DNA of 64,000 bases from an uncultured Planctomycetia bacterium (GCA_964629655.1 CAZVQU010000001.1:612056-676055), one strand, 5' to 3'; shown: positions 3,312-23,152, numbered from the stretch's first letter. Notes: generated by a model from the sequence alone, not told the origin. Made by a program: numbers and translations.

Positions 3312-3438
3312 CTAATTACTAGGGAAGCAATAGAAATAGTAGTAATTGATAAATGGTAATGTTCTGGGGGCTTATTGGGTCTCTATTTTTTTAAAGATAT
3401 TCACTATTAATCTGATAGAAAAGGTAGTATTAATACAT

Positions 3439-3660
3439 ATGGAACATCCTAAAAGATCAGCGGTAAAGGCTTTAACCTGGCGGATTATAGCATTTCTGGT
3501 GACTATAATTGCCGTCTATATCTATAGCCGAGATGTTAAGGAAGCTCTTGTTATAGGAATAAGCGCTAACTTTGTAAAAATATTTTTATATTACATCCAT
3601 GAAAGAATTTGGAATAGAGTTAAATTTGGCAGGGTAAAGATTCCAGAGTATCAGATTTAA
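3439..3660 (+). CDS. DUF2061-family small membrane protein. The ORF track begins at 3346; the ATG at 3439 is the more likely start.
   Basis: KALTWRIIAF...YIHERIWN matches the DUF2061 core, and there are two hydrophobic helices. This family characteristically sits beside PAPS/APS reductase genes. Confidence 0.5.
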   Translation: MEHPKRSAVKALTWRIIAFLVTIIAVYIYSRDVKEALVIGISANFVKIFLYYIHERIWNRVKFGRVKIPEYQI

Positions 3661-3692
3661 AGTTTATTACACAAAGAAAGAGGAGGTTTGAG

Positions 3693-4403: not shown

Positions 4404-4417
4404 GCAGGGAGGGGGAG

Positions 4418-6474: not shown

Positions 6475-7219
6475 AAAAGGTAAAGTATATATAGTAGGGG
6501 CAGGTCCGGGGGACCCGGAATTAATCAGTTTGAAAGGATTAAAAGCTTTAATGCGTGCTGACTGTCTGCTTTATGACTTTCTCTCAGCCCCGGAGTTACT
6601 AGGAGAGGCTAAGTCTTCTTGTGAGAAGATCTGTGTTGGGAAGGCTGATCGATTGCATTTAAAAGAGCAAGACCAGATAAACAAATTGCTATACGAGAAG
6701 TCTCTTGTCTTTGAAAATGTAGTTCGCCTTAAGGGCGGAGATCCGTTCATTTTTAGCCGTGGACACGAAGAGGCAAGATATCTTATTGGTAAGGGTGTAG
6801 AAGTTGAAGTTATTCCCGGGATAACTTCAGCTATCGCCGCAGCCGAAAGCTTTGGCATACCTTTGACTATTAAGAATCGGATATCATCAGTAGCTATACT
6901 AACCGGCAGGAAGAAAGATCCTAAGGCCAAGATTGACGCTCCCTGTTGCGGTACACTTATCTATCTAATGGCTGTTGCTAATATAGCTAATGTTGTTAAA
7001 GCTTTACGCCGGAGTAAAAGAAGCGAGGATACTCCTTGTGCTTTTATAGAGAAAGCAAGCAGAAAGGACTCTCGAGCTGTTTTTGCAACTATTAAGACTA
7101 TAGAGAAAAAGGCTCATAAGTTTAATGTTCGACCGCCAGCAGTGCTAGTTGTCGGCGAAGTGGTAAAAAGGGGTAAGAGAATTCAAGATGAAGGCTCTAG
7201 AGGAAATAAGACTCAATAA
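6464..7219 (+). CDS. cobA: Uroporphyrinogen-III C-methyltransferase (SUMT)
   Basis: VYIVGAGPGDPELISLKGL SAM-binding motif and the tetrapyrrole methylase fold. There is no fused HemD domain. Confidence 0.85.
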   Translation: MVNKKGKVYIVGAGPGDPELISLKGLKALMRADCLLYDFLSAPELLGEAKSSCEKICVGKADRLHLKEQDQINKLLYEKSLVFENVVRLKGGDPFIFSRGHEEARYLIGKGVEVEVIPGITSAIAAAESFGIPLTIKNRISSVAILTGRKKDPKAKIDAPCCGTLIYLMAVANIANVVKALRRSKRSEDTPCAFIEKASRKDSRAVFATIKTIEKKAHKFNVRPPAVLVVGEVVKRGKRIQDEGSRGNKTQ

Positions 7220-8135
7220 GTGGAAGAGTATCTCAGTTAGGAAGCTGATTTACCCTTTGTTTGTAAGGGAGGGTAGAGGAGTGATTGAAGAAATTTCTTC
7301 TATGCCCGGGGTCTATAGATTTTCCCCAGATACTTTAATTAGTGAAGTAGCAAACCTTGAGAAACTAGGCCTTGAATATCTATTGATTTTTGGAATACCT
7401 GAGAATAAAGATTGGCAAGGAAGTTCTGCTCTCAAGAATAGTAATGTTGTCAGTGAGTCAGTACGATTAGTAAAGAAGTGTTTTCCTCAAATTAAAGTCA
7501 TTACTGATATATGCTTATGCGCGTATACTTCTCATGGGCATTGTGGAGTTATCAGAGATGGAGCCAGGGAGATAGATAGTCAGGCTACTCTAGGAGCTAT
7601 CTCTGAGATGGCTTTGTTACATGCTCAAGTCGGCGCAGATTACGTTGCTCCTTCTGCTATGGCTAATACTCAAGTGCAGGCCATAAGGAGAACTTTAGAT
7701 AGCCAAGGTTATCAATATACCAAAATTATGGGATATTCAGCTAAGTTTGCTTCTAATTTTTATGGTCCGTTCAGAGATGTTGCTGACTCAGCTCCTCGGT
7801 TTGGCAACCGGCATGGATACCAGCTTAATTATAGCGATAGCAAAGCTGCACTGTCTAAGGTTGAACAAGATATAAAGGAGGGGGCAGATATTGTTATGGT
7901 GAAGCCGGCTCTTGGATATTTGGATATAGTGAAGAAAGTTAAGAGTGAATTTAGCTATCCTTTGGCAGTTTACAATGTAAGCGGAGAGTATGCTATGGTT
8001 AAGGCTGGAGCTGGGGTCGGGTCTTGGGATGAAAAAGAGATGGTGTTTGAGATTATAAGTTCAATAAAACGGGCTGGTGCAGATTTTATTATTACCTACC
8101 ATGCAAAAGATATAGCGGGATGGTTGAGGAAATAG
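7188..8135 (+). CDS. hemB: Porphobilinogen synthase (ALA dehydratase), zinc type
   Basis: Cys-rich zinc site DICLCAYTSHGHCG and an active-site Lys region. Confidence 0.85.
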   Translation: MKALEEIRLNKWKSISVRKLIYPLFVREGRGVIEEISSMPGVYRFSPDTLISEVANLEKLGLEYLLIFGIPENKDWQGSSALKNSNVVSESVRLVKKCFPQIKVITDICLCAYTSHGHCGVIRDGAREIDSQATLGAISEMALLHAQVGADYVAPSAMANTQVQAIRRTLDSQGYQYTKIMGYSAKFASNFYGPFRDVADSAPRFGNRHGYQLNYSDSKAALSKVEQDIKEGADIVMVKPALGYLDIVKKVKSEFSYPLAVYNVSGEYAMVKAGAGVGSWDEKEMVFEIISSIKRAGADFIITYHAKDIAGWLRK

Positions 8136-8137
8136 GG

Positions 8138-9397
8138 ATGAAAAGAGATACAAAGAATAGAGCACTTTTTGACCGGGCTAAGGAACATCTAGTTGGTGGG
8201 GTAAATAGTCCGGTGCGTTCGTTTAACTATATTGGTGCAGAGCCAATATTAATTAAACAAGGCAAAGGCTCTAGAGTTTTCGACTATGACCGAAATAGTT
8301 ATATTGATTATGTTCTTTCGTTCGGGGCTTTATTCTTAGGCCATGCTCATAAAAGAGTTGTCAAAAGCATAAGGAGAAGAGCAAAAAAAGGCTTTGGATT
8401 TGGGGCTACGAGTTTTGAGGAGATAGAACTGGCAAGATTAATTAGTGAAGCGATTCCAGTTTTGGAGAAAATCCGTTTTGTTAATTCTGGGACTGAAAGT
8501 CTGATGAGTGCAATTCGTTTGGCAAGAGGTTATACCGGCAGAGAAAAAATAGTAAAATTTAACAATGCCTATCACGGACATGCTGATTACCTTTTAACTA
8601 AAGGTGGGTCAGGCTTAGCTACCTTAAATATATCTAGTAGTCAGGGTGTACCCGATGATTTTATAAAACATACAATTGTGTTAGATTGCGCCGATAAGGC
8701 TTTGATAAAGGAGACATTTCAAAAACATGCTCAAGATATAGCCGCAGTCGTTATAGAACCAATAGGCGGAAATTACGGGGTGGTTAGGCCTGATAAAGGT
8801 TTTCTTCAATATTTAAGAGAGATCACCCAAAGATATAAAGCCCTACTCATATTTGATGAGGTTATTACAGGTTTTAGATTTAGATTTGGCTCGGTAGCAG
8901 AAATTTTTGGGGTTTGTCCGGATTTAATTTGTTTGGGGAAGATTATTGGCGGAGGATTACCAATAGGTGCTTTTGGCGGCAAGAGAAACATTATGGATAA
9001 ACTCGCTCCCCTAGGAGAAGTCTACCAAGCATCAACCTTTGCTGGAAATCCGATTGTGATGAAAGCAGGATTTGCTACTCTGAGTGCATTGGCATCGCTT
9101 AAGGATAGGTATAGCTTAGTAGAGCAATTGGCCGGCGAACTCGTATATAGCTTTAAGCAAGTAGCTAAACACCACAATATTGATTTAACAATATCTAGTT
9201 ATCGGACAATGTTCAGCTTAAAGTTTAAACAAAAGAATAAATTCCGTTTGTTTTACAAGAGAATGCTTGAAGAAGGAGTCTATCTTGCTCCTTCGGAATT
9301 TGAGGCGAACTTTTTGTCTTTCGCACACACCAAGAGAGATGTCGAGGAGACAAAACAGGCGGCTAGGAGAGCCTTTAAGAGTATAAGTATATATTAG
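8138..9397 (+). CDS. hemL: Glutamate-1-semialdehyde 2,1-aminomutase
   Basis: LVGGVNSPVRSF N-terminal motif and a class-III aminotransferase fold. The ATG at 8138 is preferred over the track start at 8120. Confidence 0.85.
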   Translation: MKRDTKNRALFDRAKEHLVGGVNSPVRSFNYIGAEPILIKQGKGSRVFDYDRNSYIDYVLSFGALFLGHAHKRVVKSIRRRAKKGFGFGATSFEEIELARLISEAIPVLEKIRFVNSGTESLMSAIRLARGYTGREKIVKFNNAYHGHADYLLTKGGSGLATLNISSSQGVPDDFIKHTIVLDCADKALIKETFQKHAQDIAAVVIEPIGGNYGVVRPDKGFLQYLREITQRYKALLIFDEVITGFRFRFGSVAEIFGVCPDLICLGKIIGGGLPIGAFGGKRNIMDKLAPLGEVYQASTFAGNPIVMKAGFATLSALASLKDRYSLVEQLAGELVYSFKQVAKHHNIDLTISSYRTMFSLKFKQKNKFRLFYKRMLEEGVYLAPSEFEANFLSFAHTKRDVEETKQAARRAFKSISIY

Positions 9398-9415
9398 GTA
9401 AAGAGAGAGGATGAG

Positions 9416-10132
9416 ATGAGTGAGAAAAATATTGACTATGGTGGTTTAAAGAAACGAGGGTTTTTAAGAGAAAGACAAGAAGGCTTCTTTACTCTGAGAA
9501 CACGTGGGCCTTCAGGAAATTATAGCCAGAAGCACTTAGCAGGCTTAGCTAAAATTTCAGAGGACTATGCTCGAGGGTTTGTCCATCTTACGGTTCGTCA
9601 AGGAATCGAGATTCCTTTTATAAAGTTTGAACATATATTAAAAGTTGAGAAAGAAGTAAACCGGCTCGGTGTTAAGTTCGGGACTTCCGGGCTGCGTTTG
9701 AGAGCTACTACTGCCTGTCCGGGCAGCAATTGGTGCAAAAGTGGTCTTGTTGATACCTTTTTTCTTTTTAACCGGATAGAAGAAAAGGGAATCAGTTGTG
9801 GTTTAGAATTGCCGCATAAATTTAAAATTGTTATTTCCGGGTGCCCCAATACTTGTACAAGGGTTCAAGCCTCTGAGATAGGAATTCATGGAGCAGTGGA
9901 TGCAGAGAGTCCGGATAAAAGAATTGGCTATTGTCTATATTTAGGTGGGTGTGGCGGAAAGACTCCGCGTATCGGATTTAAGCTAAGTAAAATTTTTACT
10001 GAAGATGAGGTTCTATCCGTGATTGAGAGGGTAGTTATTTTCTATAAAGAAAATGCTAAGCCACGCCAACGCTTTGCTTTGTTGATTGAGGAGATCGGTA
10101 AGGATAATTTCTTAAAGCAAATAGGCTTTTAA
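9416..10132 (+). CDS. Small siroheme-dependent sulfite/nitrite reductase hemoprotein (low-molecular-weight assimilatory type)
   Basis: Nitrite/sulfite reductase ferredoxin-like half-domain with the siroheme-[4Fe-4S] cysteine motifs TACPGSNWC and SGCPNTC. The RBS is AGAGAGG. Confidence 0.65.
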   Translation: MSEKNIDYGGLKKRGFLRERQEGFFTLRTRGPSGNYSQKHLAGLAKISEDYARGFVHLTVRQGIEIPFIKFEHILKVEKEVNRLGVKFGTSGLRLRATTACPGSNWCKSGLVDTFFLFNRIEEKGISCGLELPHKFKIVISGCPNTCTRVQASEIGIHGAVDAESPDKRIGYCLYLGGCGGKTPRIGFKLSKIFTEDEVLSVIERVVIFYKENAKPRQRFALLIEEIGKDNFLKQIGF

Positions 10133-10160
10133 GACTAAAAAGAATAGATATTATTGCTTC

Positions 10161-10188
10161 TTGACAATTTTTTACTTAGTAATACAAT
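10161..10188 (+). promoter_or_regulatory. Sigma70-like promoter upstream of the Rrf2 regulator gene
   Basis: TTGACA 10161-10166, a 16-nt spacer, TACAAT 10183-10188. Confidence 0.45.
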
Positions 10189-10217
10189 TTGAATACTAAG
10201 ACTATTTAATTAATTGG

Positions 10218-10229
10218 ATTACTAGTAAT
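10218..10229. promoter_or_regulatory. Perfect 12-bp palindrome in the 5' leader of the Rrf2 gene (candidate autoregulatory operator)
   Basis: ATTACTAGTAAT is self-complementary. It is flanked by AATT and lies between the predicted -10 and the RBS GGGAGGAG. Confidence 0.35.
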
Positions 10230-10241
10230 TGGGAGGAGATT

Positions 10242-10682
10242 ATGAAAATTTCAACACGTACCAGATATGGAACAAGATTAATGCTAAGTCTAGCTTTAAA
10301 TTACGGTAAAGGACCATTTTTGTTGAAAGATGTTGCTGAGGGAGAACAGATCTCAGAAAAATATTTAAGCCAGATAATTATACCTTTAAAAGCTAAAGGG
10401 TTGGTGAATTCTTTTCGCGGTGCTCACGGAGGATATACTTTGGCAAAGGTGCCTTCTCAAATAAGTATCAAAGAAATAGTTGAAGCCTTAGAAGGAGGGC
10501 TTAATCTCGTAGGACGGGTCAAAGACGCTTCTTCTTGCAGCCAGGTCTCGATACGGGTTACTCACAATATTTGGAATGAGTTAAGTGAGAAAATGGCTAA
10601 GACGCTTGGTTCAATAACCTTAGATGATTTAGTGAAGGAGTCTAAGGCAAAAGGCAATAGGGTTTTAATGTACAACATCTAA
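10242..10682 (+). CDS. Rrf2-family transcriptional regulator (CymR/IscR-like)
   Basis: N-terminal wHTH TRYGTRLMLSLA...GPFLLKDVAE...ISEKYLSQII and the GGYTLAK motif. It has only two Cys, so it is probably not a cluster-binding IscR. Confidence 0.8.
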   Translation: MKISTRTRYGTRLMLSLALNYGKGPFLLKDVAEGEQISEKYLSQIIIPLKAKGLVNSFRGAHGGYTLAKVPSQISIKEIVEALEGGLNLVGRVKDASSCSQVSIRVTHNIWNELSEKMAKTLGSITLDDLVKESKAKGNRVLMYNI

Positions 10683-10693
10683 TAGGCCATAGC

Positions 10694-10711
10694 TTGTTAA
10701 ATAGTTAACAA
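10694..10711. promoter_or_regulatory. Inverted repeat TTGTTAA-ATAG-TTAACAA immediately upstream of the ThiI-like gene start
   Basis: 7-bp arms with a 4-nt spacer, ending 5 nt before the ATG at 10716. It could be an operator or an RBS-occluding hairpin. Confidence 0.3.
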
Positions 10712-10715
10712 TATA

Positions 10716-11705
10716 ATGAAAGCAATTGCCTTATTCTCCGGTGGACTGGATAGTACCTTAGCGATAAAGACCATTACTGAACAAGGGGTAGATGTTATAG
10801 CCTTGAATTTCTTTACTCCCTTCTGTCGTTGCGAGAGGTCAAAAGGCTGTGGGTCATTAATCAAGGATATGGCTAAGGAGCTTGGCGTAAAGATAAAAAT
10901 GGTTTGTTTAGGCCAGGATTATTTAGATATGATAAAAGACCCCGAACATGGATATGGTAAAAATATCAATCCCTGTATTGATTGTAGAATATTTAAGTTT
11001 AGACGAGCTAAAGGGGTTATGAAAGAAGAAGGGGCATCTTTTGTTATTACCGGGGAGGTCTTAGGACAAAGGCCGATGTCTCAGCATCGCCAGGCTTTGC
11101 GAACAATTGAAACCAAGGCCGGTCTAGAAGGGTTGGTTTTAAGACCTTTGTCGGCAAAGCTTTTTGCTCCTACTATAGCTGAAGAGCAAGGATGGGTAAG
11201 GAGAGAGGATTTACTGGAGATAAGTGGCAGGACTCGGAAGCCTCAGATTCGGTTAGCTTCTCATTGGGGGATAAAGAATTATCCTTGTCCAGCTGGAGGC
11301 TGTCTCTTAACAGATCATCATTTTTGCCAAAGACTAAAGGATCTTCTTAAACACGAAGAAATTAATATTAATAATACCGAGCTTTTAAAACTTGGCAGGC
11401 ATTTTCGCCTGAATCCTAAATTCAAACTAATTGTAGGCAGAGACGAAAAGGAAAACCAGAAGATTTTAAACTTAGCTCAAGAAGGAGATTTTTGCTTTGA
11501 ACCTAAAGATTTGCCAGGACCAACAGGAATCGGCAGGGGCCAACTTGATGAATCTGTAAAGATATTGTCTTCTCGGATAATAGCCCGTTACACTTCTCAA
11601 GAAGAAAAAGTAGATGTATTAGTCAGAACTATTCCCCAGAACCGGGGAGAAACCCTTTCTGTGAAGGCTATCGGCCAAGAGAAGATTAGAGAATACATAA
11701 TCTAA
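10716..11705 (+). CDS. ThiI-like PP-loop ATP pyrophosphatase / sulfurtransferase that lacks a THUMP domain and carries a Cys cluster
   Basis: [11 protein letters not shown]-loop in the first 15 residues. [14 protein letters not shown] and LRPL match the ThiI adenylation domain. Extra cysteines (CRCERSKGC and PCIDC) suggest a sulfide-dependent enzyme with an [Fe-S] cluster. Confidence 0.6.
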
Positions 11706-11730
11706 GCATACAGTGAAAAAGGAGGATAAA

Positions 11731-12642
11731 ATGAACATTGCCGAAAATATCACTCAACTAGTAGGGAATACTCCTTTGGTGAAGCTAGGCAAGCTCAGTG
11801 CCGGGATTGATGCTACCTTAGTAGTCAAACTAGAGTCTTTTAACCCTTGTTCAAGCGTTAAAGACAGAATTGGGTTGGCGATGATAGAAGATGCTGAGAG
11901 GAAGGGAAAGATTAACAAAGATACCGTTATTGTTGAACCGACTAGCGGCAATACCGGGATTGCTTTGGCTTTTGTCTGTGCTCAAAGAGGATATCGATTG
12001 GTTTTAACTATGCCCGAGAGCATGTCTTTGGAGAGAAGAAAACTACTATCCTGGTTTGGTGCCGAGCTAGTTTTGACACCGGCTGAGGGAGGGATGAAAG
12101 GTGCGATTGAAGAGGCCGAGGAGCTTCTTAAAAAGTATCCTAATGCTTTTATGCCCCAACAATTTAAGAACCCGGCTAATCCTAAAATACACCAAGAGGT
12201 TACAGCTGAAGAGATTTGGCGCGATACTAATGGGGAAATTGATATTTTAATCTCCGGTGTTGGTACCGGAGGAACAATTACCGGCGTAGCGGAGGCTCTT
12301 AAGAAAAAGAAGCCTGAGTTTGAAGCAATCGCTTTAGAGCCAGCAAAATCTCCTATTCTCTCTGGCGGTAAACCCGGTTCACACAAGATCCAAGGCATTG
12401 GCGCAGGTTTTGTTCCTGAGGTATTAAGGAGAGATTTAATAGATGAGATAATTTGCATAGAGGATGAAGATGCAATCTCTATGGCTGATCGGATTGCAAA
12501 AGAGGAAGGAATCCTGGTAGGGAATTCTAGCGGAGCAGCAGTCTGGGCCGGTTTAGAAATTGCTAGGCGTCCAGAAAATAAAGGTAAACTTATTGTAGTA
12601 ATCTTACCAGATACAGGGGAGAGATACTTATCTACTTGGTAG
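11731..12642 (+). CDS. cysK: Cysteine synthase (O-acetylserine or O-phosphoserine sulfhydrylase, PLP-dependent). The track start at 11713 is a GTG; the ATG at 11731 follows AAAAGGAGG.
   Basis: [10 protein letters not shown], the SVKDRIG PLP-lysine motif, and the GTGGT glycine loop. Confidence 0.8.
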
Positions 12643-12671
12643 TAAGTAACCCTGTAATATCAAGGAGGTGA

Positions 12672-13889
12672 ATGATGTCTAAGACAATAGCTGAGATTAA
12701 TGAAAAGATTAAGAAAGGGCAGGTGGTTGTTGTCACTGCTGAGGAGATGATAGGAATCGTTAAAGAAAAAGGAGCTAAAGCTGCGGCCGAAGAAGTGGAT
12801 GTAGTAACTACAGCTACCTTTGGCCCAATGTGTTCTTCAGGTGCCTATCTCAACATCGGGCATGCTAAGCCTAAGATAAAGCTAGGTGGGGGAAAGACTA
12901 CCCTAAATAAAATTGATACATATGCGGGTTTTGCTGCAGTTGATCTTTACATTGGAGCAACTGCCCTAGCTGACGATGATCCCAGGAATAAAGTTTTTCC
13001 GGGAAAATTCAAGTATGGCGGTGGGCATGTAATTGAAGATTTAGCAGCCGGGAAAGATATTGTTTTAGAGGGTGCTGCTTATGGGACAGATTGCTATCCA
13101 GGTAAAGAGCTTAAGACACTGATTAACATAAAAGACATCAACGAAGCAGTGCTTTTCAATCCTAGGAATCTGTATCAAAATTACAATATTGCTGTTAACT
13201 TATCTGACAAGACCATTTATACCTATATGGGAACCTTAAGACCAAAGGTAGGCAATGCAAACTATTGTAGTGCTGGACAACTTTCCCCATTTCTTAATGA
13301 CCCTCTTTACAGAACTATTGGTATTGGTACCAAGATATTCTTAGGCGGAGGCATTGGTTATGTTTCTTGGTGGGGAACTCAACATAATCCTGGAGTTAAG
13401 AGAGCTGACAATAAGACTCCTCTTACGCCAGCAGGAACAGCTGCTGTTATTGGTGACTTAAAACAGATGAGCGATAAGTGGCTTAAGGGGGTTAGTTTCT
13501 TAGGGTATGGAGTAACTCTTAGTGTGGGAATTGGTGTACCTATTCCGATACTCGATGAAGAAATGGCTCAGTTTACTGCTGTATCTGATGATCAACTCTC
13601 TGCGAGCATAGTCGATTATAGTAAAGCTTACCCTCAAGGAATTCCTGAATCTTTAGGAAGAGCTACTTATGCGGAACTTAAAACTGGGAAAATAACTGTA
13701 AGAGGAAGAGAAGTTCCTACCGGGGCAATATCAAGCTATCCTAAGGCAAGAGAGATAGCTGATGAACTTAAAACCTGGATTAAGAAAGGCGACTTTCTTT
13801 TGACTGAGCCAGTGGCTGAATTTCCCGGCCCGGATTCGGGATACAAATTTAAACCTTTAAAGGTCAGAGAAGTAAAAGGAGGTAAGTAG
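12672..13889 (+). CDS. COG1900/DUF39-family protein (the methanogen MA1821-type enzyme for sulfide-dependent homocysteine formation)
   Basis: About 400 aa with the characteristic Gly-rich blocks (KLGGGKTTLN, KYGGGHVIEDL, FLGGGIGYVSWWG). The RBS is AAGGAGG. Confidence 0.6.
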   Translation: MMSKTIAEINEKIKKGQVVVVTAEEMIGIVKEKGAKAAAEEVDVVTTATFGPMCSSGAYLNIGHAKPKIKLGGGKTTLNKIDTYAGFAAVDLYIGATALADDDPRNKVFPGKFKYGGGHVIEDLAAGKDIVLEGAAYGTDCYPGKELKTLINIKDINEAVLFNPRNLYQNYNIAVNLSDKTIYTYMGTLRPKVGNANYCSAGQLSPFLNDPLYRTIGIGTKIFLGGGIGYVSWWGTQHNPGVKRADNKTPLTPAGTAAVIGDLKQMSDKWLKGVSFLGYGVTLSVGIGVPIPILDEEMAQFTAVSDDQLSASIVDYSKAYPQGIPESLGRATYAELKTGKITVRGREVPTGAISSYPKAREIADELKTWIKKGDFLLTEPVAEFPGPDSGYKFKPLKVREVKGGK

Positions 13890-13891
13890 TT

Positions 13892-14299
13892 ATGTACTCC
13901 AAAAAAATAGTTCTACACTTTCCTTCCGATCTTGTTAACAAGTCGATAATTTATAGATTATCAAAAGACTTTGATTTAGAGTTCAATATTCTCAAAGCTC
14001 TTGTTAATCCTGACGAGGAAGGATTGATGGTCCTTGAGCTAAAGGGTGAGAAAGATGAGTATACCAGAGCAGTAAAATACCTAGAAAAAGAGAAGGTTAG
14101 AATTCAGACCTTATCTAAAGATGTAATTCGCGATGAAGATAAGTGTGTTGATTGCGGATTATGTGTCGCTGTCTGTCCGGTAGAGGCCTTTGAAGTAGAT
14201 TCTGATTCAAGAAAGATAGAATTCCACGACGATAAGTGTATTGCTTGTGAGATGTGCGTGAAAGTTTGTCCTTACAAGGCTATGGAGGTAAACTTCTAA
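13892..14299 (+). CDS. NIL-domain ferredoxin with 2x[4Fe-4S] (the MA1822-type partner of COG1900)
   Basis: N-terminal NIL-like domain (about 75 aa), then CVDCGLCVAVCP and CIACEMCVKVCP. The start is 3 nt after the previous stop. Confidence 0.6.
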   Translation: MYSKKIVLHFPSDLVNKSIIYRLSKDFDLEFNILKALVNPDEEGLMVLELKGEKDEYTRAVKYLEKEKVRIQTLSKDVIRDEDKCVDCGLCVAVCPVEAFEVDSDSRKIEFHDDKCIACEMCVKVCPYKAMEVNF

Positions 14300-14308
14300 G
14301 CGAAATTT

Positions 14309-14581
14309 ATGGCAGTAATAAGAATACCTTTGTTATTTCAAGAGGCAGTAGGTGGAGCTACCCAATTAGAGGTTAAGGCAGATAATATTAGCGAGTTGAT
14401 TGGTAACTTAACTAATGAATTTCCTGATCTCAAAGAGAAATTCTATGATACCCAAGGGAGTTTAAGTAAGTTTATCAACATCTATGTTAATGGGGAAGAT
14501 TCCCGGTTTTTAGAAGGCGAGAAAACTCACCTCAATGATAGAGATATCATAGATATTATTCTTCCTATTGCCGGAGGGTAG
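14309..14581 (+). CDS. ThiS/MoaD/CysO-family sulfur-carrier protein ending in Gly-Gly
   Basis: 90 aa with a beta-grasp-like composition. The C-terminal ...LPIAGG stop is the hallmark diglycine for adenylation and thiocarboxylation. Confidence 0.6.
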   Translation: MAVIRIPLLFQEAVGGATQLEVKADNISELIGNLTNEFPDLKEKFYDTQGSLSKFINIYVNGEDSRFLEGEKTHLNDRDIIDIILPIAGG

Positions 14582-14596
14582 GAAAGATTAATTAAG

Positions 14597-15379
14597 ATGG
14601 CACTTAGTCAAGAACAACTCACCAGATACCGGCGAAATATAACCATTCCGGCCATAGGCAGCAAGGGTCAAGAAAAGCTTCTTAACTCGAAGGTGTTAAT
14701 TATTGGTACCGGTGGCCTAGGCTCATCTTGTGCCTATTATTTAGCCGCTGCCGGCATTGGAAAGATTGGCCTAGTTGATTTTGATTTGGTAGAATTAGAT
14801 AACTTGCAGAGGCAAATTCTTCATGCAACCAGAGATATTGGAAAGTCGAAGGTTATATCCGCCAAAGATAAGCTTAACAATCTCAATCCCGAGATAGAGA
14901 TTACTCCCCATAAAGTTAAGTTATCTTCTGAGAATATATTAGATATTGTTAAAGACTATTTGTTATTAGTAGAGTGCTCAGATAACTTTTTAACAAAATA
15001 TCTATTAAATGATACCGCTATTCTTACTAAAAAACCATTGTTCTATGCAGCAGTGTTAAGATTTGAGGGTCAAGCTATGACTATTCTTCCCAGGCAGACT
15101 GCCTGTTATCGCTGTCTATTCCCTAAACCACCCTCCGAAAACGAATTCATCTCACCCAAAGATGCCGGGATTCTAGGAGCTGTTGCTGGGACGATAGGGT
15201 TGGTCCAGGCCAACGAAGTCTTAAAATACATTCTAAATATAGGAGAATTATTGACCAATAAGCTCTTAACTTTTGATTCTCTTGCTACAACTTTTAAGAA
15301 AATAAAAGTTCAGCCTAATCCGAGTTGTCCGGTATGCGGCCAAAATCCTACAATAAGAGAGATTACCGGCAGTAAATAA
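14597..15379 (+). CDS. ThiF/MoeB/HesA-family E1-like adenylyltransferase with a zinc CxxC...CxxC motif and no rhodanese domain
   Basis: LIIGTGGLGSSCAYYLAAAGIGKIGLVDFD nucleotide-binding motif, plus ACYRC and SCPVC. Confidence 0.8.
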   Translation: MALSQEQLTRYRRNITIPAIGSKGQEKLLNSKVLIIGTGGLGSSCAYYLAAAGIGKIGLVDFDLVELDNLQRQILHATRDIGKSKVISAKDKLNNLNPEIEITPHKVKLSSENILDIVKDYLLLVECSDNFLTKYLLNDTAILTKKPLFYAAVLRFEGQAMTILPRQTACYRCLFPKPPSENEFISPKDAGILGAVAGTIGLVQANEVLKYILNIGELLTNKLLTFDSLATTFKKIKVQPNPSCPVCGQNPTIREITGSK

Positions 15380-15486
15380 CTCTTCCTGAATGATCAAATA
15401 CAAGGATTGTAAATATATTTAAATCTGGTAGAATATCGCTTGCGTTAGATAGGTAAAGTTAGATAAATTCAAAGTAAGGGGGAGAT

Positions 15487-16272
15487 ATGACCAAGAAGAT
15501 TTTTAGTAGTGTAGGAGAAAAAGAAGTTACCCGGGCAATTGTCGATGAATTTTCAAAGCAGTTCTCAGAGTATACTGAGAGTGATGTAATTATTATTGGT
15601 GCTGGCCCCAGTGGACTTATGGCTGGTAAAGAATTAGCGCTCGCAGGGCTTAAAGTGCTTATTGTCGAGAGAAATAATTACCTTGGCGGCGGTTTCTGGA
15701 TTGGCGGTTATCTTATGAATAAACTTACCGTAAGGGCACCGGCTGAAGAAATTCTAAAAGAGCTGGGAGTTCCTTACAAAGAAACTAATCCCGGGCTTTT
15801 TGTTGCTGATGGCCCCCATGCTTGCTCTAAGCTTATTGCTGCTGCTTGTGATGCCGGGGTTAAAATAGCTAATATGACTGTCTTTGAAGATATTGTCTTA
15901 AGAGAGAAAAATCGTGTAGCTGGCGCAGTAATTAACTGGACTCCGGTTCAAGCCTTACCGCGGCAAATTACCTGCGTTGATCCGGTAGCTATAGAGGGAA
16001 AGATTGTGATTGATGCTACCGGCCATGATGCGATGGTTTGCCAGAAGATGGAAGAAAGAGACCTGCTTAAAACTAGAGGCTATGGAGCAATGTGGGTTGA
16101 GCGCTCTGAGGATTTATTGGTTGAGCATACCGGCGAAGTATCTCCTGGCCTCATAGTCATTGGTATGGCGGTATCGACTATGTATGGGCTTCCTCGAATG
16201 GGCCCTACTTTCGGCGGAATGCTTCTTTCCGGTAAAAGAGGCGCTGAAGTTGTAAAAGAAAAATTAAAGTAG
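15487..16272 (+). CDS. thi4: Thi4-family thiazole synthase. By eye it is the non-suicide, sulfide-dependent type: the yeast catalytic Cys position reads Thr in ...IDATGHDA....
   Basis: FAD-binding [10 protein letters not shown] and the conserved VAGAVINWT...CVDP...IDATGHDA block. The RBS is AAGGGGGAG. Confidence 0.75.
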
Positions 16273-16284
16273 TCTAAGAATAAA

Positions 16285-17103
16285 ATGTCTAGGCGAAGTC
16301 ATCCCGCCAGGGGTACCATTTCTTCTATTTATCTTTATGGGAGTAGTGGCCTGCCAGAGTATAAAGCAGAAGAAATCACCGACTACCTAAAAAACATATA
16401 TCCTAAAGCAAAAACAGAGCAGAGAGGAGATTTCTTCTCCTTCTTGCTTAAAAGTCCGGACTCTCCTGATATTGAGGAGCTTGCCAGAAAAATTACCTGC
16501 TCCCGGGTTCATAGCGTTAGTGAGCAGCTGAAAGAGTTTTCACCCCTTCCCTTAGAGATTGAATATGAGAAAAAAAGGCTTTTGGGGAATAAACAACTAA
16601 AGGGTGTAATCTACGATGGTTTTCATTTACAAAAAATCTGCAGAGAGCTTCTTGGCTTAAAGGAATTTAAACCTTCATCCTGCCATATAATATTTACCAA
16701 CCAGCTATTAGCTAGTTTCGATAGCAATGATCGGCGCTATCATGTCAGAGTCGGTATCTATGGCCGGCCTAATATCATCTCTGTTCCGGGATTAGTAGAA
16801 GCTTTAGCTAAGCCTAAGGAGTACTACATAAAGATGCAGATGGGTGAGGATACCTTGACCTTAAGTCAGGAATTTAAAGGAGAGATTATCGAGTATGAAG
16901 ATACCCGGATTACAGAATTATTAAAAGGTTATTGCCTTCAAGCCCTTTTCTATCACTTGACCGGAGATCCTTTTTGCTCCGATAAAAAATGCCGCCTTTA
17001 TAATGCTCATTGGCAAAAGGAAGCAATCGAAGCCCAGATAGAGGCTGAGTATGAATTTTGCCTCAAGCATGCTGAGATTACTTCACAGTGGAAAAATAGA
17101 TAA
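16285..17103 (+). CDS. Hypothetical protein with conserved Cys/His (possible metal site). It weakly resembles archaemetzincin-type CX4C motifs.
   Basis: 272 aa, no TM segments. Cys/His-containing motifs are CHIIF, H(V)RVGIYGRP and FYHLTGDPFCSDKKCRLYNAHW. It sits between thi4 and the csoR promoter. Confidence 0.35.
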   Translation: MSRRSHPARGTISSIYLYGSSGLPEYKAEEITDYLKNIYPKAKTEQRGDFFSFLLKSPDSPDIEELARKITCSRVHSVSEQLKEFSPLPLEIEYEKKRLLGNKQLKGVIYDGFHLQKICRELLGLKEFKPSSCHIIFTNQLLASFDSNDRRYHVRVGIYGRPNIISVPGLVEALAKPKEYYIKMQMGEDTLTLSQEFKGEIIEYEDTRITELLKGYCLQALFYHLTGDPFCSDKKCRLYNAHWQKEAIEAQIEAEYEFCLKHAEITSQWKNR

Positions 17104-17145
17104 TAAATACAAGGTATTTCTAAGACGGAAAAGATTACTTTTATC

Positions 17146-17176
17146 TTGACATACCCTAGGGGGGTATGGTATAAAT
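17146..17176 (+). promoter_or_regulatory. Promoter with an embedded CsoR-type operator (GC-rich inverted repeat ATACCC-TAGG-GGGGTAT)
   Basis: TTGACA 17146-17151 overlaps ATACCCTAGGGGGGTATGG, and TATAAAT at 17170-17176 is the -10. The repeat arms ATACCC and GGGTAT are reverse complements. It lies 58 nt upstream of csoR. Confidence 0.55.
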
Positions 17177-17233
17177 GGTTTAGGGATAATAGAGATATAA
17201 CAAGGGTATTGGTTTTAAAATACGAGGTGATAA

Positions 17234-17515
17234 ATGGCGCATAAAACAACTCATAGTGAAAATTTGATTGCTCTGCGAAGAATTGAGGGCCAGATTAAAG
17301 GTATCCAGAAAATGGTTGAAGAAAAGAAATATTGTATAGATATCGTCAATCAGGTTCATGCTTCAATAAGTGCTCTTCGCCGAGTAGCTGAGAAAATTCT
17401 CTCTAAACATATGGAACATTGCGTAGTAGATGCCATAAAGGGGAAATCAGAGTCGCAAAGAAAAGAAAAGATAGATGAGGTAATGAGTGTAATAAGAAAA
17501 ATACATAAGATATGA
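17234..17515 (+). CDS. csoR: CsoR/RcnR/FrmR-family metal-sensing transcriptional repressor
   Basis: 93 aa, all-helical. Conserved Cys (KYCIDI) and the H-x-x-x-C pair (HMEHC) sit at CsoR Cu(I)-ligand positions. The RBS is GAGGTG. Confidence 0.75.
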   Translation: MAHKTTHSENLIALRRIEGQIKGIQKMVEEKKYCIDIVNQVHASISALRRVAEKILSKHMEHCVVDAIKGKSESQRKEKIDEVMSVIRKIHKI

Positions 17516-18528
17516 GAGTAGCTAAAACAATTTTTATCTTGACCTTTATTTTAAGCCTAACAGTTCTACATAACGAAATAAAAGCAGGCTCTCTTTACAA
17601 GGAAATAAATATTATTGGTGGTTATTCCGATCTCAACAAATCGGTTGGTAAGGATAATAGGTCATTAAAGAATTCAATTGGCTTTGAGTATTATGATAAG
17701 TTTTCTGACCAATACGGAGATTATTTAACTGCCGATCTTCAAGTGAGATTAGCTTATGATTCTTTAAAGAATTCCAATGATGCCTGGGCTCTTGAGGTTC
17801 ACAATGCTTTTCTAGATTACAAATTAGGCTTAGGTAAGGCTTTACGTGTAGGGCATTTTGATCCCTCATTTGGGCTTGAACCGGTTCTGGATACGCACGG
17901 TACTTTATTCCAGACCTTAGCTCGCAAGAACATTGGTTTTAAAAAAGATTGGGGCACTGGCATAAGAGGTATTCTTGGTGAGTTTGACTATGAACTTTCT
18001 GCTCAAATTGGCTCGGGGATGGGTATTGAGAGAAAAGACGGAAGTTTTTTGCTCAGTAGCAGGCTCGGGACAGCCCAGGATAGAGATTTTCAATACGGGA
18101 TATCTTTGCTCTATGGTGAAGTGCTTGCCAGTAACGAAACAAAGACTATTCCGGCCCCGGAGCTTATCTCAAACCAGGCTATTCTTAAGAAGAGGATAGG
18201 TTTAGATGGCCAATATTCATCCGGCCCTTATCTACTAAAGGGAGAGTTAGTTTATGGCCAGGATTCCAACGATGATATTCTGGGATCGCTCCTTGAGGTT
18301 GATTACGTTCCTCGGTCTATTCAAGAGTTAGAATTTAAACTGCAAGGTCAGTTTTTCTCAAAAGATTTAGGAAATTCTAATCTTCAAGATATAATTGTTG
18401 GCGCTGGATTGGGCTACAAGCTTAATTCTGACCTTACTCTACGGTTAGCTTATTTTCATGATTTTCGCTCATCAAGCGTAGATAAGGATAGGCAGGTGCT
18501 TTTGCAAGTATACTATTATGGGCTTTAA
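17512..18528 (+). CDS. Putative outer-membrane beta-barrel protein (porin-like)
   Basis: Signal peptide, alternating amphipathic beta-strand pattern with many Y/G/D/N, and a C-terminal aromatic end ...VYYYGL. It overlaps the csoR stop by 4 nt. Confidence 0.45.
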   Translation: MRVAKTIFILTFILSLTVLHNEIKAGSLYKEINIIGGYSDLNKSVGKDNRSLKNSIGFEYYDKFSDQYGDYLTADLQVRLAYDSLKNSNDAWALEVHNAFLDYKLGLGKALRVGHFDPSFGLEPVLDTHGTLFQTLARKNIGFKKDWGTGIRGILGEFDYELSAQIGSGMGIERKDGSFLLSSRLGTAQDRDFQYGISLLYGEVLASNETKTIPAPELISNQAILKKRIGLDGQYSSGPYLLKGELVYGQDSNDDILGSLLEVDYVPRSIQELEFKLQGQFFSKDLGNSNLQDIIVGAGLGYKLNSDLTLRLAYFHDFRSSSVDKDRQVLLQVYYYGL

Positions 18529-18529
18529 G

Positions 18530-19213
18530 ATGAGAAAATTTATTTTAAGTTTAATGCTGTGTTTTTTATCAACTTTTGCTTACTCTGATGATGCGTCTGC
18601 AGCAGTTGGCTGTACCTTAAACGACCCGGATCGTGATGTAATCCGTATTTTCCCAGAATCTACCGGTTATCGAACTGATTTTATAAGCATAAAGGAGAAG
18701 GGTGGGGAGATTTTAGCAGAAGAAATAGAAAAGAAGCTCGGCGATAAACTAGATTCTGCTTATGAGTCTTTAGATGTGCCTTATTCTTACTATACCATTC
18801 TTAAAGGCATGGAGGTCATTGGCTACATTCATGGTGTTAACCAGAAAGGAACTTTTGGAGGAATACAGATTATCTTAGCCAGTGATTTAGAGGGTAAGAT
18901 AATAAATCTTTATTATCAGAAGATATCTTCTCCTGAGGCCAGTAAATTTAGAAACAAAAGATTTGTTGACCAGTTCACAGGACTAACACTGGCAGATTTC
19001 TATCGTCATGATGCTTTAGGGGGTAACGAATATTCTTATGACAAAATAGCAGAAATCAAAGATCCAAGCGAAAACAGCAATCAAGATTTTAAAGCCACCT
19101 TAAGAGGCATAAAGAAGAATTTAATCTTACTTGATGAGTTTATATTAAATAGTAAGTATGATCAGGATTATAACAAGATTAATAAAGGAGGTAATAATGA
19201 GAGTGATGATTAG
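18530..19213 (+). CDS. Secreted protein with an FMN-binding-like domain (similar to the NosR/RnfG/NqrC periplasmic domain). The flavinylation motif is not evident.
   Basis: Signal peptide MRKFILSLMLCFLSTFAYS. The core GVNQKGTFGGIQIILASDLEGKIINLYY...FVDQFTG fits an FMN_bind domain. The track start at 18518 precedes the porin stop. Confidence 0.4.
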   Translation: MRKFILSLMLCFLSTFAYSDDASAAVGCTLNDPDRDVIRIFPESTGYRTDFISIKEKGGEILAEEIEKKLGDKLDSAYESLDVPYSYYTILKGMEVIGYIHGVNQKGTFGGIQIILASDLEGKIINLYYQKISSPEASKFRNKRFVDQFTGLTLADFYRHDALGGNEYSYDKIAEIKDPSENSNQDFKATLRGIKKNLILLDEFILNSKYDQDYNKINKGGNNESDD

Positions 19214-19568
19214 CATTTCAGTATGTCTATTGATTATTTTCACCGGAGCATTAATAAGTGGGTGTGGCCGCTTAGAAGAGTATGGAGAAAGAATCTCCAA
19301 TCAAGAAATCACAAAAATTAGTGATATTCTCAAGAAACCAAAGAGTTATGACCAGAAAACACTTATTATTGAGGGCAAGATCATGGTTGAATGTCCTGCT
19401 GGCTGTTGGTTTACTTTAAGAGATGACTCAGGAGTTATCTATGTTGACCTTGGGCCTTCAGGGTTTGCCATAGCTCAGCATACAGGAGATGAGGTTTTAG
19501 TCGTTGGAGAGATTGTAGATAAGAAACCAAATCCAATAATGATCGGAAAAGGGGTGAAGATAAAATGA
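19197..19568 (+). CDS. Small lipoprotein, OB-fold-like, with a CxxGC motif
   Basis: AGGAGG RBS, then an ATG at 19197. There is a lipobox LISGC. The motif ECPAGCWF is followed by beta-rich sequence. The track start at 19158 is upstream of the RBS. Confidence 0.45.
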   Translation: MRVMISISVCLLIIFTGALISGCGRLEEYGERISNQEITKISDILKKPKSYDQKTLIIEGKIMVECPAGCWFTLRDDSGVIYVDLGPSGFAIAQHTGDEVLVVGEIVDKKPNPIMIGKGVKIK

Positions 19569-20749
19569 AATTAGCAATATTAGCCTTTAAGAATCTCAAA
19601 AGAAAAAAGATTCGTTCTTTCCTGACCATAGGAGGAGTTGCTATTGCTGTGGCGGTGTTAGTGAGCCTGATGGGTTTCAATCTTGGCTATCAAAAAGCTC
19701 TAGGCAGTGATATTGATAAGATGGGATATCAGCTCTTAGTTACTGCCAAAGGGTGTCCTTATGAGGCTGCAACGTTAATGTTAAAGGGCGGCGGCGGGTT
19801 ACGCTACATGGAAGAGGATGTATACAATAAGATTGTCCAAGATAGCCGTATAGACAAAGTCACTCCTCAATTAATATACACTGTCTTTGATCCTCAAAGA
19901 AGCGAAGGCCAAGGTGGCTTTGCGATGTACATGGGGATTTTAGATTCTTATCTGGAGTTAAAACCTTGGACTAAATTTAAGAGTGGCCGATGGTTTTCTG
20001 GTGAGGATGTTGAAGAGGTTGTTATGGGCTATGAGGCTGCCGAGGTTGAACAACGTTTGGTTGGTGATAAAATTTTCATTCCAGGCATTGATAGAGTTCT
20101 TAAAGTCGTAGGTATATTTGATAGAACCGGCACCCAAGATGACGGAGTGATATTTTTACCTCTAGCAACTTCACAAAGGATATTTAACCTTCCTGCTAAA
20201 TTAACTGGAATTGGCATAAAGTTAAAAGACATAAGAAAATTAGCAGAGTTTGAAGAAGATTTGTATGATGAGCCAGGCATCCAGGTAATCAGCATGGCTC
20301 AAGTAAGGGGAACAATTCTTAATCTCATATCTTCGGCAAAGATTTTAGTAAACTCAGTAGCGGTAATAGCTATTTTTATAGCAATAATCGGAGTAATAAA
20401 TACTATCCTAATGTCTGTATTTGAGCGAACTCAAGAAATTGGCGTAATGAAAGCTATTGGTGCTTCCAAGCTAGATATTTTTCAAATTATCTGGATCGAA
20501 ACAACTCTTATTTGTGTCTTAGGCGGGGTTGCCGGCAGCCTCGTAGCTATTTTAGGCGGAAACGTAATTGAGCACATATTAAAACAAATCTTGCCTTATG
20601 CTCCTAGTGGGAAGTTAGTGCTTATTACTCCAAATCTTCTCCTAGCCTCATTCCTCGGGGCTATTATTTTGGGATTGATCTCAGGGATTTACCCGGCAGC
20701 TCGGGCAGCATCAATGAGACCGATTGAGGCAATCAGGCGCGGAGGATAA
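19565..20749 (+). CDS. ABC transporter permease of the FtsX/MacB/LolCE family
   Basis: TM1, then a periplasmic domain of about 220 aa, then three C-terminal TM helices with the conserved FtsX region (LMSVFERTQEIGVMKAIGAS). Confidence 0.8.
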   Translation: MKLAILAFKNLKRKKIRSFLTIGGVAIAVAVLVSLMGFNLGYQKALGSDIDKMGYQLLVTAKGCPYEAATLMLKGGGGLRYMEEDVYNKIVQDSRIDKVTPQLIYTVFDPQRSEGQGGFAMYMGILDSYLELKPWTKFKSGRWFSGEDVEEVVMGYEAAEVEQRLVGDKIFIPGIDRVLKVVGIFDRTGTQDDGVIFLPLATSQRIFNLPAKLTGIGIKLKDIRKLAEFEEDLYDEPGIQVISMAQVRGTILNLISSAKILVNSVAVIAIFIAIIGVINTILMSVFERTQEIGVMKAIGASKLDIFQIIWIETTLICVLGGVAGSLVAILGGNVIEHILKQILPYAPSGKLVLITPNLLLASFLGAIILGLISGIYPAARAASMRPIEAIRRGG

Positions 20750-20752
20750 AAT

Positions 20753-23113: not shown

Positions 23114-23152
23114 AATTCCTAGCTCGGGAAGGTTGAGTTTTAAGGAGATTTA

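Follow-up and report, generated by a model that had tools for sequence, protein, structure and literature searches.

A sulfur-assimilation supercluster with an Rrf2-family regulator and a Cys-type Thi4 in an uncultured Planctomycetia bacterium, and its predicted operators

This study focused on a stretch of 64,000 nucleotides (nt) from an uncultured Planctomycetia bacterium (GCA_964629655.1, CAZVQU010000001.1:612056-676055), hereafter called the window, and in particular on a gene for an Rrf2-family regulator (10242-10682) and the seven same-strand genes that follow it and end at 16272, as found by calling open reading frames (ORFs). The last of the seven encodes a Thi4 thiazole synthase of the Cys type, and the closest described systems are the neighbourhoods of other such genes, more than 400 of which have been surveyed (Oliveira-Filho et al., ACS Omega 2026, PMC13325395; bioRxiv 10.1101/2025.09.23.678117). 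In that survey, DUF6775 was a neighbour in two-thirds of cases, and ThiF, CysK, ThiS, NifS, ThiI, CysI, NifU, MnmA and HcyBio were also found, while representative genomes lacked ThiG. An Omnitrophica Thi4 gave better complementation in E. coli lacking thiG than in E. coli lacking thiG, thiF and thiS, and it was proposed that ThiS-thiocarboxylate either provides an alternative source of sulfur or acts in repair and that DUF6775 is a possible metal chaperone (PMC13325395).

The locus in the window resembles these clusters closely. Cys-type Thi4 is followed immediately by DUF6775, with ThiS and ThiF next door, and the published ten-gene neighbourhood, for which an Omnitrophica genome was among the test cases, likewise contains CysK, a sulfite reductase, HcyBio and a ThiI-like PP-loop protein. 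The clustering of Cys-type Thi4, DUF6775 and ThiS/ThiF was also reproduced in loci L095-L098 of the present study. An earlier reading made from the sequence alone (the sequence-only reading) had called the gene combination of the window no textbook operon, which is correct, but the clustering has already been published (PMC13325395) and the biosynthetic parts are individually known, so that the locus cleanly exemplifies, in extended form, a type of cluster described in 2025-26 and built from known enzyme families. The published account is silent on Rrf2 (the term is absent from its text), on an operator, on a split into three units and on His-type Thi4 at the corresponding locus in other phyla. 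The additions made here are a three-unit architecture, a predicted CymR-like regulon with its operator, and a CysK-docking tail on the regulator.

Extent, gene order and enzymes of the cluster

The Rrf2 gene and its seven followers form the middle of a sulfur-assimilation supercluster of about 14 kb, lying at about 3284-17103. Its spacers measure 2-33 nt within, and 107-109 nt between, what we predict to be three transcription units: unit 1 from DUF2061 to sir, unit 2 from rrf2 to thiF, and unit 3 comprising thi4 and DUF6775. Genes of unit 1 overlap or abut each other, and the 107-nt gap between thiF and thi4 is the sole large spacer among the eight genes of 10242-16272. Taken as a whole, the explanation developed below from this layout is one that we consider likely. 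The shared direction of the genes carries no weight as operon evidence: among the 60 listed ORFs of the window with 120 amino acids or more, 55 are on the + strand, and of the five on the minus strand several lie inside plus-strand genes; the case for operons thus rests on short spacers and conserved synteny. The genes of the cluster are as follows.

Unit 1
3439-3660, + strand: DUF2061 small membrane protein, first gene of the unit (PF09834, E = 1.7e-16; syntenic in L081, L089 and L090)
3693-4403, + strand: CysH, adenylyl sulfate/phosphoadenylyl sulfate (APS/PAPS) reductase (PF01507; NF002537 172.5 bits, cut-off 154)
4352-9397, + strand: siroheme pathway block (Pfam; NCBIfam TIGR01470 and TIGR01469), made up of the next six genes
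4352-4891, + strand: SirC/CysG-N
4860-5879, + strand: HemA
5806-6474, + strand: HemC
6464-7219, + strand: CobA
7188-8135, + strand: HemB
8120-9397, + strand: HemL
9416-10132, + strand: small siroheme-[4Fe-4S] sulfite/nitrite reductase-like protein, 238 amino acids (PF03460 and PF01077)
Unit 2
10242-10682, + strand: Rrf2-family regulator, CymR-like (PF02082, 125 bits)
10716-11705, + strand: ThiI/TtuI-like PP-loop ATPase with NFACT-R_2 (Pfam and NCBIfam profiles)
11713-12642, + strand: CysK, O-acetylserine sulfhydrylase A (TIGR01139 464.1 bits, cut-off 351)
12672-13889, + strand: catalytic subunit of L-ASST (L-aspartate semialdehyde sulfurtransferase), COG1900a/DUF39/HcyBio, the Hcy gene below (PF01837, 490.7 bits)
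13892-14299, + strand: NIL-ferredoxin subunit with two CxxCxxCxxxCP motifs (PF09383 and Fer4 families)
14309-14581, + strand: ThiS/MoaD-type sulfur carrier, 90 amino acids (PF02597)
14597-15379, + strand: ThiF/MoeB-type activating enzyme (E1), an adenylyltransferase of 260 amino acids (PF00899 257.7 bits; PRK05690 267.3 bits, cut-off 266)
Unit 3
15487-16272, + strand: Thi4 thiazole synthase, Cys-type ('suicide'), active-site C163 (PF01946, 239.9 bits)
16285-17103, + strand: DUF6775/DUF7001 protein with an archaemetzincin-like fold, 12 nt after Thi4 (Pfam)

Profile hidden Markov model searches of Pfam and NCBIfam matched PF01837/DUF39, NIL, ThiS, ThiF and Thi4 and bore out all eight domain assignments of the sequence-only reading, and its idea of a sulfur-incorporation module under an Rrf2 regulator holds. 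Its wider statement, that every enzyme installs sulfur from sulfide or from a protein thiocarboxylate, is unproven for Thi4, this being Cys-type. The picture of a module of a sulfide-rich anaerobe proves too simple, since the locus is contiguous with CysH, the siroheme pathway and a sulfite reductase and has a common predicted operator with them. The CysH translation shows a CC...CxxC motif and ECGIH, and that of the small sulfite reductase, whose gene is syntenic in L001, L081, L082, L085 and L089, carries a CPGSNWC...CPNTC motif. With APS/PAPS reductase, siroheme pathway and small sulfite reductase adjoining the cluster, the cell can make its own sulfide: unit 1 would reduce APS or PAPS to sulfite and sulfite to sulfide, and would also supply the sulfite reductase with its siroheme.

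Relatives share this synteny. At least ten related metagenome contigs (L085-L094), with ThiS 82-88% and Thi4 94-97% identical to those of the window, have exactly Rrf2, PP-loop, CysK, Hcy, NIL, ThiS, ThiF, Thi4 and DUF6775, preceded by CysH to Sir, and L081 and L082 have the upstream half of this order. The genome loci nearest to the window come from Candidatus Omnitrophota metagenome-assembled genomes (MAGs), the Hcy protein being 83% identical in L001. Neighbours were counted in 80 species-level loci anchored on the Hcy gene and labelled Omnitrophota, Dehalococcoidia, Planctomycetes, Deltaproteobacteria, Spirochaetota and Aerophobetes. The NIL-ferredoxin gene adjoins Hcy on its downstream side in 54 of the 80, CysK lies upstream in 45, Rrf2 upstream in 41 and Thi4 nearby in 29, so that a core of Rrf2, CysK, Hcy and NIL is present in 41-54 loci across several phyla. 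Other frequent members are NifS, IscU, the NifU C-terminal domain, LarE, glutaredoxin, thioredoxin reductase and BirA. In other Omnitrophota (L006-L076; e.g., L020:11573-12454) the NIL-ferredoxin is followed by a LarE-family sacrificial sulfur transferase (TIGR00268, 336 bits), NifS and IscU; the clade of the window carries the PP-loop/NFACT-R gene and ThiS-ThiF in place of LarE, NifS and IscU.

COG1900 and NIL-ferredoxin proteins together are the L-ASST of methanogens and Desulfovibrio (PMC12068725, PMC5764234), and in MA1821, a COG1900a protein, Cys54 is essential and the second conserved Cys is Cys131 (PMC12068725). Like MA1821 and MA1822 of Methanosarcina acetivorans and the Desulfovibrio pair, the window has a full-length HcyBio domain (PF01837 profile positions 1-349 of 349), both cysteines (C54 and C141, invariant in 79 orthologues) and an adjoining NIL protein with two [4Fe-4S] motifs, whose gene begins 2 nt after Hcy. 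It differs in that its catalytic subunit has no CBS domains and the pair is embedded in an Rrf2/CysK operon; a COG2122/PRK04334 gene is absent from the locus but present in Dehalococcoidia loci. The pair would make homocysteine from aspartate semialdehyde and sulfide. CysK is of type A (O-acetylserine sulfhydrylase A) and not CysM: its top match in the PDB is M. tuberculosis CysK1 (2q3b, E = 3e-129) and CysM models stay under their cut-offs. It would make cysteine from O-acetylserine and the sulfide of unit 1. Since CysK is of the CysK1 type, cysteine synthesis of the CysO/CysM kind was considered unlikely.

A fusion of ThiI with NFACT-R (DUF814) was predicted in 2014 by Burroughs and Aravind as an alternative synthase of 4-thiouridine (s4U) at position 8 of tRNA, usually encoded beside TusA (PMC4075521), and in archaeal TtuI (Methanococcus, Pyrococcus) a CXXC+C triad binds a catalytic [4Fe-4S] cluster and inorganic sulfide is the sulfur source (PMC9825150). 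The PP-loop protein of the window has a ThiI-like domain at residues 2-145, with the motif SGGLDS (SGGxDS in these families), and an NFACT-R_2 domain (PF18297, 80 bits) at residues 227-328 in place of THUMP, for which Pfam gave no match in this protein; C87-x-x-C90 and C196 are invariant in 20 homologues. It thus has the PP-loop and CXXC+C triad of a [4Fe-4S] U8-tRNA sulfurase without an N-terminal THUMP domain, and like the described proteins it lacks a rhodanese domain. Unlike the reported family it has no TusA neighbour, its gene sitting between rrf2 and cysK. The enzyme, a predicted [4Fe-4S] binder, would thiolate RNA, most likely yielding s4U in tRNA. The PP-loop/NFACT-R family is large (at least 8000 matches), and no experimental work on the fusion was found in the literature searched.

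The Rrf2 regulator and its predicted operators

The CysK active site of S. aureus takes up the C-terminal peptides of both CymR (EDLDGYMFYI) and CysE (...DDYII), with key contacts made by the terminal Ile (bioRxiv 10.1101/2024.09.19.614015). The Rrf2 protein of the window ends in VLMYNI and has a single Cys (C99), and that of L001 has none, while most orthologues have C-x(6-8)-C-x(5-6)-C, the set of ligands of Rrf2 proteins that bind a cluster. The loci contain 51 Rrf2 genes; a C-terminus of the form [YF]-x-I is encoded by 35 of the 36 with cysK among the next three genes and by 4 of the 15 without; an Elusimicrobia Rrf2 that precedes Thi4 instead of cysK (L098) is without the tail. The sequence-only reading had called the regulator CymR/IscR-like. 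Its first half stands, given one Cys and a tail of the CysK-docking type. IscR identity was rejected because the cluster ligands are missing, one of three Cys positions being occupied among [2Fe-2S] ligands of the Cys92/Cys98/Cys104/His107 kind, and the IscR model TIGR02010 scored 100 bits against a cut-off of 208.

In common with the CymR-CysK system of Bacillus subtilis and Staphylococcus aureus, the window has an Rrf2 winged helix without the three ligand Cys, an aromatic-x-Ile end, a co-occurring type-A CysK and predicted control of sulfur-assimilation genes; unlike there, rrf2 shares one operon with cysK, the operator sequence differs, and most orthologues in other lineages keep three Cys plus the tail. 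Since the tail tracks cysK and the S. aureus tail docks in CysK, we infer a CymR-like mechanism: the regulator would be a cluster-less, CymR-type repressor whose Y-N-I tail would dock in the CysK active site, the CysK-Rrf2 complex would bind operators of the CTACTAA-N10-TTAGTAG type before unit 1 and at its own promoter, and O-acetylserine, building up under sulfide shortage, would act as inducer by releasing it. The loss of cluster-ligand cysteines is a feature of the Rrf2 proteins of the window and L001; about 30 further Rrf2 genes beside cysK, as well as those of L002, L003, L008, L010, L019 and L028, combine the three-Cys motif with a Y-x-I tail, which suggests two-input regulators that sense both Fe-S status and O-acetylserine/CysK. 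CysK-docking Rrf2 regulators in several uncultivated anaerobic phyla are likewise suggested by this analysis, which also yields a concrete predicted operator and two target promoters. A paper linking Rrf2 to DUF39/L-ASST was not found in the literature searched.

Upstream of Rrf2 in about 27 loci, a TTGACA-type promoter is immediately followed by an inverted repeat with the consensus CTACTAA-N10-TTAGTAG; Dehalococcoidia have a different palindrome, TTGTTGAC-N-GTCAACAA, at the corresponding position. A generic inverted-repeat test and a scan for the consensus with mismatches were uninformative in AT-rich DNA (the window is 61% A+T), and a position weight matrix (PWM) was used instead, trained solely on lineages outside the clade of the window. 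Maxima from shuffled sequence had a mean of 9.5 bits (standard deviation 2.9, maximum 16.4). The sites in the window are as follows.

3284-3311, + strand: promoter-like site of unit 1 (TTGACA, 16 nt, TATATT, preceded by TGg), read from the sequence
3316-3345, no strand: weak operator-like site just past the -10 box of unit 1 (PWM 3.1 bits; left half poor, right half AATAGTAGTAATT perfect and identical to the L008 operator)
3401-3430, no strand: strong predicted Rrf2 operator TCACTATTAATCTGATAGAAAAGGTAGTAT, 9 nt upstream of DUF2061 (PWM 23.3 bits, the best match in the window)
10161-10188, + strand: promoter-like site of the Rrf2 operon (TTGACA, 16 nt, TACAAT, 11 of 12; invariant in nine close relatives)
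10174-10229, no strand: diverged autoregulatory operator region, predicted from the PWM, inverted repeats and comparison with 27 loci; half-sites TTAGTAA at 10176-10182 (over the -10 box), ATACTAA at 10193-10199 and TTACTAG at 10219-10225
10190-10219: PWM match in the Rrf2 promoter (13.8 bits, second best in the window)
10199-10228: PWM match in the Rrf2 promoter (13.4 bits, third best in the window)
15407-15434, + strand: internal promoter-like site before Thi4 (TTGTAA, 16 nt, (TGg)TAGAAT), kept in L085-L094 with diverged flanks

The next PWM match in the 64 kb scores 6.0 bits and lies away from the promoters of the sulfur cluster. Across 1.29 Mb of loci, the matrix found 32 sites of at least 15 bits: 27 precede Rrf2, many of these being training sites, 4 precede DUF2061-cysH (L001, L081, L089 and L090, at 21-24 bits), and the remaining one, at 204 in L007, falls at the start of the extended Rrf2 ORF call of that locus. 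The position of the unit 1 promoter matches that of the promoters upstream of Rrf2 at other loci. No operator is predicted at the Thi4 promoter, whose spacer holds a perfect 12-nt palindrome, TAAATATATTTA, at 15410-15421; it is imperfect in L089-L091 and may be due to chance.

The sequence-only reading had proposed two palindromes as Rrf2 sites, and both are present: ATTACTAGTAAT at 10218-10229 and TTGTTAA-ATAG-TTAACAA at 10694-10711. The first overlaps the conserved right half-site, but its own right arm varies among close relatives (AGTAAT, AGTATT, AGTGTT, AGTGAT), and the conserved unit is therefore the half-site and not the palindrome. The second was rejected, as it is not conserved in close relatives with 64-86% identical PP-loop proteins and similar repeats are common in the window. 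In DNA this rich in AT, palindromes of these sizes occur at, or close to, the frequency expected by chance, perfect 12-mers numbering 20 against 22.4 +/- 5.5 expected and repeats with seven-nt arms 62 against 45 +/- 9, about 2 standard deviations above. Riboswitch control was rejected as well, for no thiamin pyrophosphate, S-adenosylmethionine or other riboswitch reached the Rfam gathering threshold anywhere in the window, and a permissive Rfam scan of 3200-17600 gave two chance-level matches only.

A number of findings count against the regulatory scheme and the supply route that it assumes. While the regulator has an Rrf2 fold without Cys3 ligands and a C-terminal Ile tail, the binding itself being predicted, its score with the NCBIfam CymR equivalog NF047409, 123.9 bits, falls short of the cut-off of 195. 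The association of tail and cysK (Fisher's exact p = 3e-7) takes no account of phylogeny. The operator at the Rrf2 promoter is non-canonical, with half-sites 19 nt apart rather than 10; its PWM scores of 13-14 bits are inside the range of the shuffle maxima, and its conservation extends over nine sequences, all from close relatives. The 64-kb window has no cysE gene, leaving the source of O-acetylserine unseen, and no visible ATP sulfurylase, so that the entry point of sulfate is unseen too.

Thi4, DUF6775 and the client of the sulfur carrier

An active-site His is the hallmark of sulfide-using, catalytic Thi4 (PMC8454699). In the Thi4 of the window, C163 ('ITCVDP') aligns on the active-site His ('GLHIDP') of the methanococcal structures 4y4m and 4y4n, and it is conserved in all Thi4 relatives at 63-97% identity. 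By this residue the enzyme is Cys-type, of the nominally 'suicide' class (EC 2.4.2.60), and lacks the His of the catalytic, sulfide-dependent class (EC 2.4.2.59). Both classes occur across the loci, the His-type enzymes being 36-46% identical to that of the window. A His-type gene lies near Hcy in 22 loci of other lineages (L003-L074; e.g., L049:9234 and L060:9228), in many of them directly upstream and within the Rrf2/CysK operon, and is never accompanied by DUF6775. As the two types are found at the corresponding operon, both classes have been recruited to the same sulfur operon. In one NCBI MAG contig (L087:11194-11962) Thi4 was called as two ORFs of 210 and 57 amino acids, possibly through a frameshift or assembly error, in a locus that is otherwise identical.

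In the loci examined, including Elusimicrobia, Chloroflexi and WOR-3 contigs, DUF6775 stands only beside Cys-type Thi4. An AlphaFold2 model of the window's own protein (predicted local distance difference test score averaging 92.7) reproduces the published structural result. The protein has an invariant Cys3His site (C231, C236, C259 and H262) and no HEXXH, and further invariant residues (E91, E95, H153, R155, E172, K214, Y216 and H242) may mark a functional site. It resembles archaemetzincin (AmzA; PDB 2x7m, 3zvs and 3lmc) in fold only: the catalytic HEXXH is missing, with no conservation at its positions, His takes the place of Cys as fourth ligand, and there is an additional N-terminal region of about 100 residues. 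The archaemetzincin motif HEXXHXXGX3C is absent, the aligned His being replaced by Q or Y in relatives.

Unit 3, with its own promoter, would make the thiazole of thiamin. In unit 2, the ThiS ORF ends in ...PIAGG and a stop, thus providing the C-terminal Gly-Gly (GG), and ThiF carries a CxxC...CxxC pair; Pfam gave no match to a MoeZ/MoeBR-type C-terminal rhodanese domain in this ThiF, although the ThiF of L083 does have one. ThiF would adenylate ThiS-GG, allowing its conversion to the thiocarboxylate. It is tentatively suggested that ThiS-ThiF, possibly with DUF6775, might make the nominally suicidal Thi4 a multiple-turnover enzyme, with ThiS-thiocarboxylate donating the thiazole sulfur or repairing dehydroalanine, sulfide coming from the co-regulated sulfite reductase, and supply being governed by a CymR-like repressor that gauges sulfur status by way of CysK. 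Suicide Thi4 is among the most expensive enzymes of plants and fungi. If a Cys-type Thi4 is indeed kept catalytic by a natural system, this would be of interest to enzymologists and crop engineers; the locus is a compact candidate operon for Thi4 turnover, with sulfide source, carrier, E1, Thi4 and DUF6775 in an ordered set.

As client of the ThiS-thiocarboxylate, Thi4 is favoured, as Oliveira-Filho et al. propose, though with rather less than even confidence and with other clients possibly alongside, because of the published clustering and complementation and because three of the four independent DUF6775 loci (L095-L098) have ThiF within 7 kb. This preference is weakened by the two nearest GTDB representatives, L001 and L002, in which ThiS-ThiF is missing at the locus while L002 keeps Thi4-DUF6775, and by the joining of ThiS-ThiF to the Hcy/NIL unit, with a promoter setting them apart from Thi4. 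L097 was rejected as proof of an independent ThiS-ThiF-Thi4-DUF6775 module without L-ASST, since an assembly gap, seen as a run of N, is situated directly upstream. Two of the DUF6775/Thi4 loci have CysO/CysM/Mec-like sets, with Prok-JAB, a pyridoxal phosphate (PLP) enzyme and ThiF nearby at L095:13136-14783, and ThiS, two PLP enzymes, a ThiS-ThiF fusion and a stand-alone NIL domain at L098:370-4475. A metagenome scan with ThiS as query gave two distant loci only.

The protein-thiocarboxylate routes of Wolinella (HcyS/HcyF/MetY), M. tuberculosis (CysO/CysM/MoeZ) and Streptomyces (MetO/MetM) are models for another role, in which ThiS-ThiF would serve amino-acid synthesis, the thiocarboxylate carrying sulfide to the COG1900/NIL-ferredoxin enzyme or to CysK. 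The gene layout fits such a role, as thiS starts 9 nt past the NIL-ferredoxin gene in the same unit while the 107-nt promoter-like gap divides thiF from thi4, and the order NIL-ferredoxin, ThiS, ThiF is retained in the more distant Omnitrophota genome L097. The nearest solved relative of the carrier is CysO (3dwg_C, E = 1.3e-10), and distant ThiS relatives (34% identity) in L084 adjoin MetX-like and PLP enzymes and ThiF. With the CysO-CysM-Mec-MoeZ system of M. tuberculosis and the HcyS-HcyF-HcyD-MetY-Sir system of Wolinella the window shares a CysO-like GG carrier, a ThiF-type E1 and, as in Wolinella, a sulfite reductase within the cluster, but it lacks a JAMM protease (its ThiS terminates in GG as encoded), an acceptor of the CysM or MetY type and a rhodanese domain in the E1. 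We nevertheless consider this role unlikely, as the CysK is of the sulfide-using CysK1/type-A kind, ThiS adjoins none of the 80 L-ASST genes that anchor the species-level loci, ThiF is within 10 kb in only 3 of them, and the L-ASST of methanogens and Desulfovibrio functions without such a carrier (PMC12068725, PMC5764234).

It could also be that there is no dedicated relay, the genes being gathered by a common regulator and free sulfide, with ThiS-ThiF a general-purpose carrier system (e.g., for molybdopterin) inserted in one lineage and Thi4 truly single-turnover. The content of Rrf2 operons varies greatly by lineage (NifS, IscU, LarE, glutaredoxin, thioredoxin reductase, His- or Cys-type Thi4), ThiS-ThiF is at the locus only in the clade of the window and in L097, and PRK05690, a model of the MoeB subfamily, is the sole ThiF-family model to pass its cut-off. 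Against this, ThiS and ThiF are among the genes commonest beside Cys-type Thi4 in more than 400 genomes without ThiG, and the Omnitrophica Thi4 complemented E. coli better with host thiF and thiS (PMC13325395). We therefore give this possibility little credence, the more so as the 64-kb window contains no molybdopterin genes.

A TtuA/TtuB/TtuC-like thiolation of RNA would have ThiS-ThiF feed the PP-loop/NFACT-R enzyme, with the carrier thiocarboxylate as donor to a [4Fe-4S] PP-loop thiolase, ThiF-type E1s being common to several pathways in Thermus. This is very improbable: the PP-loop gene, thiS and thiF do share one predicted transcription unit, and the enzyme has the CXXC+C motif of cluster-dependent thiolases and neither a rhodanese domain nor the reported TusA partner of its family (PMC4075521), but its gene occurs without ThiS-ThiF in L001, L002, L003, L014, L016, L023, L057 and L062, and the related [4Fe-4S] TtuI enzymes take inorganic sulfide directly.

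Flanking regions

Just upstream of the sulfur cluster are genes for a 376-amino-acid protein with no Pfam or NCBIfam match (841-1971) and a 420-amino-acid radical S-adenosylmethionine protein of weak MoaA-like similarity (1982-3244); the pair is syntenic with the cluster in L081 and L089, and in L003 the radical S-adenosylmethionine gene (82% identical) lies directly before Rrf2.

Downstream of DUF6775 come CsoR and an ATP-binding cassette (ABC) module, and after these BirA with a biotin operon. The interval from DUF6775 to BirA (17234-22130) encodes CsoR, two unknown proteins and a MacB/ABC transporter; the matching segment of L089 (12901-20080) has a YHS/cupredoxin protein, CsoR and a resistance-nodulation-division efflux system, and L085 (at 12850) has nothing there, so that it looks like a swappable copper-resistance insertion site. 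BirA and the full biotin operon (bioB, bioF, a hydrolase, bioC, bioD and bioA), then Fur, FeoB and DtxR-FeoA, occupy 22139-33066, a cofactor and metal neighbourhood with conserved ends; in L097 (7954-11461) a block of Fur, FeoB, DtxR, OsmC and a radical S-adenosylmethionine protein directly follows DUF6775. GC skew is positive throughout the window, its cumulative value rising monotonically, and nearly all genes are on the + strand, which would fit a place on one replichore, distant from origin and terminus.

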